This document shows positions 56,967-62,919 of a DNA stretch of 64,000 bases, piece after piece. Under the pieces are notes generated by a model. The model saw nothing but the letters and a program-made list of their open reading frames with translations, did no database searches and was not told where the DNA came from. Location of the stretch: positions 27,434-91,433 of IMG/VR virus record IMGVR_UViG_3300030090_006322. One strand, 5' to 3'. The first letter of the stretch is position 1, and each line of letters begins with the position of its first letter. A program made the position numbers and the translations under genes. This DNA comes from a virus.

Positions 56967-57184
56967 TGAAGACACGCATACACGTTAACCAGCACAAGAT
57001 CCGCAGTAATGCAAAGACTGGCGAGAGGGAGCCAGTGCTTACGGTCAAGACTTACAAAAGCAACACTTACTGCAAGACGGTCAACATAAACGGCCCTTGT
57101 AAAGTTGTTTACTCGCCTGATAACCCGCTGCCCTGCGGTGCGAAGGTCTGGATTGAAACAGAAGAAGGTGTTGTATGTGATTGA
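56966..57184 (+). CDS. conserved small phage protein
   Basis: IHVNQHKIRSN..PVLTVK..YSPD.PLPCGAKVWIET pattern; 3' end overlaps element copy 5. Confidence 0.8.
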   Translation: MKTRIHVNQHKIRSNAKTGEREPVLTVKTYKSNTYCKTVNINGPCKVVYSPDNPLPCGAKVWIETEEGVVCD

Positions 57185-57330: not shown

Positions 57331-57693
57331 ATGAAATTGAGATTCCCCAAACTCTGGAGCAAAAAAAATAACAAATTGCCCCTTGACTTAACCCCGCTTA
57401 TGCCTTATACTACCATTATGAAAAACGAAATCATGTCCACCCCATCCACCCTTCCTTCCAACCCTATCGCACTTGCCTCCGCACTGACTGGCAAGACTTT
57501 GGTATACAACGCTCGCAAGTCTACTGTTACCAGTGACAAGATGCGTGTGTTCAAAGTCGAGAAAGTCGATGACGTATTCACATCCGACTCCTCTGGTCAG
57601 CAGTGCGTAACCCTTTGGGCAAAGGATATCGACCAAGGCGGTCGCTTGGTCCCTCGGACCTTGCACGTTGTCGGTATCGAATCAGTTTCATAG
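57331..57693 (+). CDS. hypothetical protein with a second in-frame start at 57418
   Basis: 120 aa or 91 aa; both starts have promoters. Confidence 0.7.
   Translation: MKLRFPKLWSKKNNKLPLDLTPLMPYTTIMKNEIMSTPSTLPSNPIALASALTGKTLVYNARKSTVTSDKMRVFKVEKVDDVFTSDSSGQQCVTLWAKDIDQGGRLVPRTLHVVGIESVS
57383..57411 (+). promoter_or_regulatory. internal early promoter, leaderless
   Basis: TTGACT-17-TATACT; ATG +6 (57418). Confidence 0.82.
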
Positions 57694-57769
57694 AGGGGAA
57701 ACATGATAGCGGGGGGGTGAGGTTGTTTTTGCTTATGTTCTACCTCACCTCCCTGCACTCACTTTTTAC

Positions 57770-57798
57770 TTTACAAACAACAAACCATACATTACATT
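57770..57798 (+). promoter_or_regulatory. early promoter, leaderless
   Basis: TTTACA-17-TACATT; ATG +6. Confidence 0.65.
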
Positions 57799-57804
57799 AG
57801 CATC

Positions 57805-58023
57805 ATGCCTAAATCACCAGAATCGATTCGTATCGAAGTTAAAAATAAAGACCAAGCCGCATTGCTTAACTATGCCTTGGGTATCGTTCACCAAACTCTA
57901 GCTGAAAGAATGTCAGAGGTAGCAGACGATAAGCTCGACAATTTTATGGACAATGTGAAGTGGACACGCAAACACGCTTCCGCATTGAACGAAAAGTTTT
58001 CTTTGGCTCCAACCGAGTCATAG
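57805..58023 (+). CDS. hypothetical protein
   Basis: 72 aa. Confidence 0.72.
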   Translation: MPKSPESIRIEVKNKDQAALLNYALGIVHQTLAERMSEVADDKLDNFMDNVKWTRKHASALNEKFSLAPTES

Positions 58024-58029
58024 AAATTC

Positions 58030-58368
58030 GGAGCGGAACCGCAAAGCGATACTGGATATCCAGAAGCTCCTAAAAAACAACTTCACCTGAATTCTCTGTG
58101 GCTAGGGTGTCGTAAAACGCACAGAGGCTCCCAGCGTGTGGGCAAATAAACCGCTAGGTGGTAACAGTGACCAACTCTTAATTGACTGGCACTCGTCAAC
58201 AAGCCGACCCTCTCCCACTTTTCTAGACAGTGGGAGGGGGATATAACTTTCTGGAGGAAAGCCCCAACGGAGTGCTACCACAGATTGAAGCCGTCGATAG
58301 TGGTTCTTTAACCTAGAGCGGTCTTTAAATAGACCTTAATGACTCGAAACTATCGGCGGTTTCTTTTT
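58030..58368 (+). ncRNA. candidate structured non-coding RNA
   Basis: No substantial ORF; several stems with G-U pairs on the + strand; ends in a 15-bp stem plus T-tract. Confidence 0.55.
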
Positions 58369-58386
58369 GTTCTGTTAACTCAAGTC

Positions 58387-58463
58387 ATAACTCATTGATA
58401 CTGAACGACTTAGCGGGGCGCGGCCCCCCGCGCCGCGTAACTCGTTGATACTCAACGACTTAC
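58387..58463. repeat. 77-bp twin-palindrome element, copy 6
   Basis: ATAACTCATTGA-TAC-TGAACGACTTAG / GTAACTCGTTGA-TAC-TCAACGACTTAC. Confidence 0.95.
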
Positions 58464-58534
58464 GAGGCAAAAACAAGCACAGCTTTCTGGGTATGTCAAG
58501 CAGAAAAAAAATAAAAAAATAAAACAAAAAAGGG

Positions 58535-58562
58535 TTGCATGAAATGAATTTTTCGGTATACT
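58535..58562 (+). promoter_or_regulatory. early promoter, leaderless
   Basis: TTGCAT-16-TATACT; ATG +6. Confidence 0.8.
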
Positions 58563-58568
58563 ACTGGC

Positions 58569-59384
58569 ATGAGCTTAATCCTAGCCAAAAACAAAGTCAC
58601 TCGCGAACAACTTGTGAGTGCTGATTCGGACGCAGGTCTGATCATCGAAGGATTGGGTAAGAACGGCGTGGTCGCTAAGACCCCCGACCCAACCGACACC
58701 CACACCCCTATTCCCCACGCGCTTCTCGTTGATGAGGCGCATGAGGCTTTGGACCGCGCAGGTCTAGAGGTGTTGGAGGAAGAACACGCCCTTGGGCGTG
58801 GTGGACTCCGCTACTTTGGTGGCTTCGCCATCAAGGGGACGGATATGGAAGCAAGCGACCGCCGTTTGGTGGTTGGGCTTCGTAACGCGCACGACAAGTC
58901 CTTTGCGGCTTCCGTGTGCATCGGTAACCAGATGATGGTTTGCGAGAATCTTTGCTTCTCTTCGGATGTGAAGCTCGCTCGCCGTCATACAGCCAACATC
59001 GTGCGCGACTTGCCTCGCGTCCTTTCTTCGGCTGTGTCTCGCGTCATCTCCCACTGGAGTGACATGGGCAAGCGCATCGACGCTTACCAAGCGACCGAGG
59101 TTGCTCGCGACCGCGCCGCTGACCTCATCGTCAGCCTTGTGGACGCGAAAGCGTTTCCTGCTCGCGATGTCTACAAGGCAGTGCAGGAATTCCGTAACCC
59201 TCGCCATGAGGAGTTCAAAGGCGGCTCTCTGTGGACCCTTTACAACGGGATCACGGAGAATCTCAAAGGCGGTGACTTGACCAAGTTGCCACAGCGCACA
59301 ATGACTGTGCAGTCTGTCTTCGACAGGATCGCGGGGCATAGCCCCGAAATCCTCGATGCCGAGGAGGTCGCGCTTCCCGCATAA
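58569..59384 (+). CDS. DUF932-family protein
   Basis: GLRNAHDKS..G..MVCENLCF..RRHT..SLWTLYNGITE. Confidence 0.8.
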   Translation: MSLILAKNKVTREQLVSADSDAGLIIEGLGKNGVVAKTPDPTDTHTPIPHALLVDEAHEALDRAGLEVLEEEHALGRGGLRYFGGFAIKGTDMEASDRRLVVGLRNAHDKSFAASVCIGNQMMVCENLCFSSDVKLARRHTANIVRDLPRVLSSAVSRVISHWSDMGKRIDAYQATEVARDRAADLIVSLVDAKAFPARDVYKAVQEFRNPRHEEFKGGSLWTLYNGITENLKGGDLTKLPQRTMTVQSVFDRIAGHSPEILDAEEVALPA

Positions 59385-62731: not shown

Positions 62732-62804
62732 TGGGAGCGACAGGATTCGAACCTGTAACCTAACGATTATGAGTCGCTTGCTCTGACCATTGAGCTACAC
62801 TCCC
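62732..62804 (-). tRNA. tRNA with CAT anticodon, most likely tRNA-Ile2 (lysidine type)
   Basis: Cloverleaf GGGAGTG..AGCGA-CTCATAA-TCGTT..GGTTCGAATCC..CGCTCCC-A; anticodon arm GCGACTCATAATCG resembles bacterial Ile2; no encoded CCA. Confidence 0.9.
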
Positions 62805-62846
62805 TCATTATGTTTATTTAGATTATTTCAGTTGATCTGGCTGATC

Positions 62847-62919
62847 TGGGTGTGGCGGGATTCGAACCCGCACTTTACAGATTTTAAGTCTGTTGCCTCT
62901 GCCGTTGGGCTACACACCC
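62847..62919 (-). tRNA. tRNA-Leu(TAA) with a short variable loop
   Basis: GGGTGTG..ACAGA-CTTAAAA-TCTGT-AAAGT-GCGGG-TTCGAAT-CCCGC-CACACCC-A; 73 nt. Confidence 0.9.

Follow-up and report, generated by a model that had tools for sequence, protein, structure and literature searches.

Small RNAs of bacteria and prophages that are derived from 3' untranslated regions (UTRs), such as CpxQ, SroC and DicF, come from the 3' end of an mRNA and have the terminator of that mRNA in common. The put RNAs of phage HK022 and the EAR element are structured processive-antitermination RNAs that act in cis within their operon, and in lambdoid phages nutR and putR are placed between a small early gene and a terminator. 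The dimerisation initiation site (DIS) of HIV-1 carries a six-nucleotide self-complementary sequence in a loop of nine, with two flanking bases on the 5' side and one on the 3' side, and its variants switch between palindromes. The ROOL and GOLLD RNAs are encoded by phages and prophages, often beside tRNA genes, and contain pseudoknots and symmetric kissing loops with covarying palindromes; one GOLLD example was first detected in a marine sample, where it lay downstream of a tRNA-Met (PMC12286853). Here we describe a structured RNA at 58030 to 58368 of a 64,000-nucleotide stretch (the window), which is the final 64 kb of the 91,433-bp IMG/VR virus contig IMGVR_UViG_3300030090_006322 (positions 27,434 to 91,433). 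The RNA follows p72, a conserved early gene of 72 amino acids. We read it as the structured, modular 3' part of the p72 transcript, which would act in trans as a stable RNA and pair with itself through the loop of its module D, and we assign this overall reading a probability of about 0.55.

Like the ROOL and GOLLD RNAs, the RNA described here is encoded by a phage, has a tRNA in its neighbourhood in relatives and contains a pseudoknot and a covarying loop palindrome. It differs from them in having no match to their sequences or models, in the size of its core (about 150-350 nucleotides (nt) against about 600-800 nt), in being made of exchangeable modules strung together where those have a single conserved architecture, and in following a protein gene without having its own promoter.

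The comparison covers about 70 related marine phage loci, cited below by their L numbers where they have to be told apart. Searches with the p72 protein gave 24 and then 32 IMG/VR loci, a 20-mer from module C retrieved 50 marine metagenome stretches, and a 23-mer within the same module was found in 16 IMG/VR stretches. Different relatives have different segments of the window in common, and the module borders follow from this. The RNA is a chain of separate modules (A, B, S3, C, D, E1 and E2, in this order) that are reshuffled among related marine phages, not one obligatory fold. In the relatives the stretch downstream of p72 is a mosaic of 85 to about 580 nt, and some of them carry additional modules that the window does not have. 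The first-pass annotation had pictured a single multi-domain fold of about 340 nt, which does not agree with modules that stand separately, are nested or are reordered in relatives.

All five stems that the same annotation had drawn are present, namely (a) GGAGC 58030-34 with GCTCC 58066-70 around CGC-AAA-GCG and CTGG-ATAT-CCAG, (b) CTCTGTG 58094-100 with CACAGAG 58120-26, (c) TTGAC 58182-86 with GTCAA 58195-99, (d) a 12-bp stem (58208-19 with 58229-40) and (e) a 15-bp stem (58287-301 with 58349-63) that includes two G-U pairs and is followed by T-rich sequence up to 58376. Its proposal of a conserved, structured non-coding phage RNA on the + strand was borne out as well, with covariation among homologs in A, B and D and folding better than that of shuffled controls (-119 kcal/mol and z = -3.8 on the + strand, z = -3.6 on the - strand). 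As the two z-scores are alike, the excess of self-complementarity alone picks no strand. The strand is indicated by the paired columns of A, B, S3 and D, which hold 908 Watson-Crick, 80 G-U and 9 A-C cells; since a G-U pair on the + strand would be an A-C mismatch on the - strand or in symmetric DNA, this asymmetry points to an RNA of the + strand.

The description of the stretch as ORF-free and GC-elevated was correct in part. No conserved open reading frame (ORF) was found and stops occur in all frames, although short spurious ORFs of 36-59 amino acids overlap the stretch, none of them with a Pfam match. The GC content (48.4%) is raised against the phage core (35.6%) but not against the surrounding cassette region (46.7%). 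Coding by read-through of the p72 TAG, which would add 41 codons in the window, was rejected because module A lies in a different frame in L002, and the 1-nt insertion or deletion inside C means that C is not coding.

Module B (58084..58126, + strand) is, judging from compensatory changes that back both of its stems, an H-type pseudoknot with an A-rich third loop. The strands follow one another in the order S1-5', S2-5', S1-3' and S2-3', with S1 at 58084-88/58105-09 and S2 at 58094-100/58120-26. S2 is stem (b), which is real but had been read as a plain stem, whereas it forms half of the pseudoknot. In the covariance-model alignment of 34 distinct sequences, both-sided changes were found in all five S1 pairs and in three of the seven S2 pairs, and 93% of the cells are paired, a share that falls to 33-55% if the partners are shifted by one to three columns; a plain MAFFT alignment gave the same picture. 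S1 occurs as at least a dozen different sequences, all of them complementary (for example CACCU/GGGUG, CCCGC/GCGGG, CUCCC/GGGAG, UCUUUCC/GGAAAGA and UUUUCCCC/GGGGAAAA). When own arms were compared with foreign ones, random partners reached the observed energy in 0 of 5000 trials for S1 and in 7 of 5000 for S2, a test that is inflated by sequence relatedness, of which the diversity of the S1 sequences is independent. The covariance model of B has matches in 36 loci.

Module A (58030..58070, + strand) is a three-way junction in which the outer stem GGAGC/GCTCC encloses two inner hairpins. Among its 12 sequence variants 99% of the cells are paired and four pairs are changed on both sides; the outer stem GGAGC/GCUCC becomes GGGGC/GCCCC or ACAGC/GCUGU, and the inner hairpin CUGG/CCAG becomes CAGG/CCUG. 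The module is optional in relatives, and in L096 the junction core is nested inside the hairpin of another module. The putative hairpin S3 (AGCG/CGCU, 58133..58155, + strand) is weakly supported: 98% of its cells are paired, the variation is almost only from G-C to G-U, and random partners did as well in 742 of 5000 trials, which is not significant.

Module D (58208..58240, + strand) is a 12-bp pyrimidine/purine hairpin with the palindrome UCUAGA (58222-27) in its loop, which counts as nine nucleotides if a U-A pair closes it. Covariation supports the hairpin, with 99.4% of the cells paired, both-sided changes in five of the twelve stem pairs (26 distinct sequences) and 33 G-U cells against a single A-C cell in the stem. 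Counted by sequence context, the loop hexamer is UCUAGA in 19 cases and ACUAGU in 13; GCUAGC (L036) and the wobble form UCUAGG also occur. The outer positions of the hexamer change jointly (U-A 17, A-U 8, U-G 1, unpaired 0). This switch from palindrome to palindrome is seen in simple and in extended stem backgrounds, each with stems that are otherwise near-identical, and so requires at least two independent double changes in the loop. In some relatives the top of D is expanded by tens to about 150 nt, with the base and the loop motif kept.

The self-complementary apical hexamer of D, kept through double changes, recalls the DIS of HIV-1 both in the anatomy of the loop and in the switching of palindromes. 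The likeness ends there, as the sequence of D is unrelated, its flanking bases are pyrimidines where those of the DIS are purines, it lies in the transcript of a DNA phage for which no packaging role is conceivable, and its dimerisation is a prediction. Palindrome-to-palindrome switching has been taken as support for intermolecular kissing loops in the OLE and GOLLD RNAs (PMC12286853). The loop of D may similarly let two copies of the RNA pair loop to loop, a suggestion whose chances we put at somewhat less than even. Behind D a linker with the motif ACUUUCU (58241..58252, + strand) recurs in most but not all relatives; in relatives without B this tail can be matched by eye to the sequence on the 5' side of C, which would close a helix.

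Module C (58157..58208, + strand) is a nearly invariant element of 52 nt that includes hairpin (c), TTGAC/GTCAA at 58182-99. In the loci found through the p72 protein its mean identity is 97.4%, compared with 76% for the p72 coding sequence and 58% for third codon positions; these protein-anchored loci give the fair figures, yet C was located in them by the same exact 20-mer. As most copies were collected by exact 20- to 23-mers from C, the sample is biased and part of the apparent invariance is built in. Variation is limited to one stretch of 4-6 nt (AACUC, AGACCC or AGAUCC), which includes the length change of 1 nt. Since C does not vary, pairing inside it, hairpin (c) included, is not supported by covariation. 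A candidate second pseudoknot, in which AGUGACCA is complementary to UGGCACU inside C and one variant adds a pair, would have a linking loop of 1 nt that makes it sterically incompatible with hairpin (c). The C 20-mer occurs in none of about 185,000 prokaryote genomes and a 24-mer from E1 is likewise absent from prokaryote genomes (exact matches), which speaks against a host or prophage copy, and the modules are single-copy, with none found elsewhere in the 91-kb contig.

These inverted repeats could instead work at the level of DNA, as double-stranded sites of protein binding or recombination such as an operator, an origin or a shuffling site. The locus is a hot spot of recombination in which modules are inserted within one another, TTGAC-N8-GTCAA and the hexamer palindromes resemble dyad-symmetric protein sites, and C, which does not vary, gives no RNA proof of its own. 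However, the tolerance of G-U cells and the near absence of A-C cells counted above (80 against 9) are unexpected for symmetric DNA sites, and the two interleaved, covarying stems of the pseudoknot have no DNA counterpart; a DNA-level element is very improbable to us.

The first-pass annotation had named a decoy, an antitoxin mimic and a ribozyme among the possible identities, none of which the results single out, and an Rfam scan among the checks. With Rfam 15 at the gathering threshold (including ROOL, GOLLD, ribozymes, riboswitches, RNase P, 6S and tmRNA) the window gave two tRNAs only, both elsewhere, and at E <= 10 the region 57700-58600 gave four chance-level matches to unrelated eukaryotic families and no match to a ribozyme, a riboswitch or another family of this kind. 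The RNA belongs to no catalogued family. A search for tRNA-like domains with ARAGORN returned only the two tRNAs at 62732-62919 of the window and, in relatives, nothing but the separate tRNA-Met further downstream. Likenesses to RNase P (GAGGAAAG, GGUAACAGU), to the 16S rRNA 3' end and to the preQ1-I loop were dropped, as no model match was found.

A highly conserved core with a pseudoknot and helices of differing length at its sides is nevertheless a typical pattern of ribozymes and aptamers, and C could be the catalytic or ligand-binding core of a new class of self-cleaving ribozyme or of riboswitch. The RNA adjoins a tRNA in relatives, and theta ribozymes of gut phages are reportedly located next to tRNA. 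Apart from the lack of any matching ribozyme or riboswitch model, the order of the helices in B is, by our own comparison, unlike the double pseudoknot of ribozymes of the hepatitis delta virus (HDV) type and no hairpins lie between its strands. The supposed core also parts from the pseudoknot in both directions, with C without B in L016, L020, L036 and L077 and B without C in L008 and L009. We regard this explanation as scarcely probable.

We return to the reading of the RNA as part of the p72 transcript. This transcript would start at a promoter at 57770..57798 (+ strand) that was found by promoter scan (TTTACA, 17 nt, TACATT), would encode p72 and would end at the terminator E2. The ATG of p72 (57805..58023, + strand) lies 6 nt past the -10 element, so that the mRNA would be leaderless; a matching arrangement was observed in L015 (TTGACA, 17 nt, TAAATT and the ATG 6 nt later). 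No promoter-like site on the + strand was found by the scan between 57798 and 58376 of the window, nor between the p72 promoter and the terminator of L015, and in L036 the scan gave no + strand promoter anywhere. In all C-bearing metagenome stretches with enough upstream sequence p72 lies directly upstream of C, with the exception of L077. The lack of an internal promoter and the almost constant position of p72 directly upstream place the RNA in the 3' part of the p72 transcript. By these sequence signals, positions 58024-58376 of the window make up the structured 3' untranslated portion of that transcript and not an independent gene with its own promoter, as the idea of a separate cargo gene had implied.

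In L077 (3720-4540, - strand) p72 is deleted, and C-D stand behind a homologue of the 120-amino-acid gene of the window, after its terminator-like hairpin; synteny with the downstream DUF932 gene is retained. Relatives of p72 with 50-88% amino acid identity occur on about 35 distinct IMG/VR contigs. The protein is modelled as a hairpin of two helices (predicted local distance difference test score, pLDDT, of 88), for which no structural match was found in the PDB, and p72 has no match in Pfam or PHROG. As p72 is conserved also in lineages without B, C and D, a specific binding of C by p72 is unlikely. A contig of 127 kb (IMGVR_UViG_3300030104_006589) holds two different p72-plus-RNA loci, L027/L112 near base 1,000 and L026/L117 near base 118,900, with 78% and 69% amino acid identity to the window and ACUAGU in the D loop of both; they could be paralogues or the joined assembly of two phages.

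Module E2 (58287..58376, + strand) is best read, from its GC-rich stem directly before a U-rich tract, as the intrinsic terminator of the p72 transcript. It consists of the 15-bp stem with two G-U pairs, an interior of 47 nt and the T-rich tail; the terminator scan, which is limited to loops of 8 nt, made no call here on account of the longer interior. The stem is common to 13 variants whose interiors range from 15 to 50 nt, the U-G pair of the stem is conserved, and GAUAG/CUAUC is replaced by GGCAG/CUGUC. Up to four hairpins of the E2 type stand in tandem in L055 (7754-8309), each followed by a U tract, with a near-identical stem (GCCGUCGAUAG/CUAUCGGCGG) and different interiors. In other relatives (L012, L019, L023, L066, L095 and L104) D followed by a T run forms the terminator.

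Module E1 (58251..58283, + strand) is a hairpin with a conserved apical loop of 18 nt (AAGCCCCAACGGAGYGCU), a GG/CC closing and a variable lower stem, and was found in 14 contexts. The lower stems differ and remain complementary (CUG/CAG, GAGAGG/CCUCUC, CGAGGG/CCCUCG, CGGGGG/CCCCCG). E1 is nested in other stems in L073, L074 and L085 and also occurs upstream of p72 in L026 (10930-10990) and L056, where its apical loop caps a terminator-like hairpin that belongs to the gene before p72; between these two loci the lower stem shows a compensatory change, CGAGGG/CCCUCG against CGGGGG/CCCCCG.

Such occurrences raise the question of whether the whole stretch might be generic 3' UTR hardware, which terminates the p72 mRNA and protects it from exonucleases with no sequence-specific function. 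E2, and D in some relatives, are plain terminators, E1 tops the terminator-like hairpin of an upstream gene in L026 and L056, and modules come and go while p72 is retained. Protection, on the other hand, needs neither an invariant sequence of 52 nt nor a conserved apical loop of 18 nt, nor a loop palindrome that is held self-complementary through double changes, and seven modules over 350 nt behind a coding sequence of 219 nt are more than termination requires. We judge this explanation to be distinctly unlikely.

The stretch resembles CpxQ, SroC and DicF in lacking its own promoter and in using the terminator of the upstream mRNA, of which it forms the 3' end. The resemblance extends to a conserved single-stranded stretch before the terminator, and L066, L095 and L104 end in C, D and a U run; the RNA described here is much longer and more structured.

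The modules are combined in several ways among the relatives. Only D is present in L012, L019 and L023, while C occurs without B in the four loci named above. L137 (1420-1760) is an example of a second lineage (L004-L006, L010, L055, L136 and L137) in which two other structured modules stand behind p72, a multi-stem element starting with GAGGGUAUAGUCACCGAG and a hairpin with the stem GGGAUU/AAUCCC. In L008 (1960-2067) and L009 (1935-2041) a small hydrophobic ORF (MEAIKLVLITL...) follows D, and neither a promoter nor a Shine-Dalgarno sequence is apparent before it; the RNA is thus inside an operon in that lineage.

A long-range pseudoknot between 58150-59 and 58311-22, which the first-pass annotation had put forward, is unsupported, though it may form in this one sequence. 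The complementarity exists (6 + 4 bp with a 2-nt bulge) but comparative support is absent: L055 has the partner in the loop without the 5' partner, many loci have the 5' partner without E2, the ACCUAG half is missing in the E2 interiors of L010, L011, L062 and L064, and the 5' partner overlaps the 3' arm of the local hairpin S3. An enrichment of CTAG was also considered and found too weak (four in 356 nt against a genome average of 2.9 per kb, Poisson P about 0.02), and no avoidance of CTAG was found in the genome. The four sites (58102, 58154, 58223 and 58313) lie in the middle loop (L2) of B, at the flank of S3, in the D loop and in the E2 interior, and each is self-complementary.

In at least five relatives identified with ARAGORN, and in several more by eye, a tRNA-Met(CAT) directly follows C-D, a GC-rich hairpin and a T tract (L015:3474-3549, L016:3428-3502, L024:3474-3549, L026:11623-11698 and L036:8420-8495). 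No promoter was found between the hairpin with its T tract and the tRNA in these relatives, and the tRNA must therefore come from read-through or from processing of the same transcript. The homologous tRNA of the window lies about 4.4 kb away on the - strand (62732-62804).

This arrangement speaks for a cis-acting transcription element, in which B-C-D would alter the polymerase or the folding of the terminator and so allow read-through into downstream genes. The promoter-less tRNA-Met of L015, L016, L024, L026 and L036, on this explanation, must come from read-through, and the hydrophobic ORF after D in L008 and L009 is promoter-less as well. The position, with a small early gene in front and a terminator after it, is that of nutR and putR, and it is also what the stretch has in common with the put RNAs and the EAR element, together with the tRNA read-through needed in relatives. 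In contrast to those systems, the element here is optional among relatives and has no Rfam match to known antitermination RNAs, and antitermination is only a candidate role. The window, moreover, has nothing promoter-less after the terminator, and leaky termination or processing by RNase P explains the tRNA equally well. There is, in our estimate, only a small chance that the stretch is such an element; this explanation and protective hardware are the main rivals.

In the reading that we prefer, the RNA would persist as a stable non-coding species, whole or as a processed 3' fragment, and act in trans. Its partner, RNA or protein, would be recognised through C, the pseudoknot and the hairpins would serve as protective, scaffold-like ends, and the palindromic loop of D would bring two copies together by loop-to-loop pairing. 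Taken by itself, the action in trans is a rather doubtful part of this scheme. Several points weigh against the reading. The second lineage has its other modules plus E1 and E2 behind p72 and is without B, C and D, L008 and L009 have B and D without C, and no module is present in every relative, which argues against a single function that these phages cannot do without. Recent spread by recombination, rather than selection, could account for the invariance of C, and a short-word BLAST search for a target complementary to C in the phage itself gave only chance-level matches of 11-13 nt. The outer pair of the D loop could be an intramolecular pair that closes a CUAG tetraloop, although this would be one pair beyond a 2x1 internal loop and add little stability. 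Finally, we infer the ends, the stability and the processing of the transcript.

The RNA lies in an array of small genes on the + strand (about 53.7 to 61.5 kb, ~47% GC) that are set apart by a twin-palindrome element of ~84 nt. Of this element the window has eight copies, and behind each copy come an A-rich tract and a promoter of the sigma-70 type. The cassette of the RNA runs from the twin-palindrome at 57166 through the 120-amino-acid gene (57331-57693), p72 (57805-58023) and the ORF-free stretch to the next element, which begins at 58380. This element (58380..58463) bounds the cassette outside the RNA proper and is present in all related loci. The gene after the terminator has its own promoter and A-rich upstream element. 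The sequence GTTCTGTTAAC is found at 58366-58379 and at the same junction in L066, L095 and L104. It precedes the twin-palindrome whether the terminator is E2 or D, and may be a boundary sequence of the mobile element and not a part of the RNA.

The array resembles the promoter-early stem-loop (PeSL) cassettes of T4-type phages, a system that shuffles genes (PMC2839356, PMC4122927), in being a row of small genes with a repeated stem-loop and promoter; the likeness concerns the setting and not the RNA, and the repeat here is a twin palindrome of different sequence. The AT-rich core of the phage (35.6% GC) encodes a terminase, a ribonucleotide reductase, a DnaB-type helicase and a UvsX-type recombinase according to PHROG matches, and the matches among ten large ORFs of the phage are to the usual replication and packaging enzymes only. 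A DNA search with the locus gave no match in cultured phage genomes, and a 385-amino-acid ORF of the structural-gene block, used as a test protein, has no relative in cultured phages.

Few structured phage RNAs are known, and this locus is a small, tractable case with unusually clear comparative support, namely a covarying pseudoknot, a 52-nt element conserved above its neighbouring gene and a loop that changes only from palindrome to palindrome. It is possible, though we think it unlikely, that it represents a new class of small phage RNA with exchangeable modules and DIS-like pairing into an RNA-only dimer or a higher assembly, a miniature counterpart of the ROOL and GOLLD cages that would serve early in infection as a decoy or sponge of a host factor or in the handling of the adjacent phage tRNA. 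The recurrent tRNA-Met downstream offers a testable link to phage tRNA expression. Like the small early genes that surround them, structured RNA modules are inserted, nested and swapped between these phages. Should the modules be functional units, such as decoys, binding sites or assembly points, RNA would belong to the fast-evolving early arsenal of marine phages.

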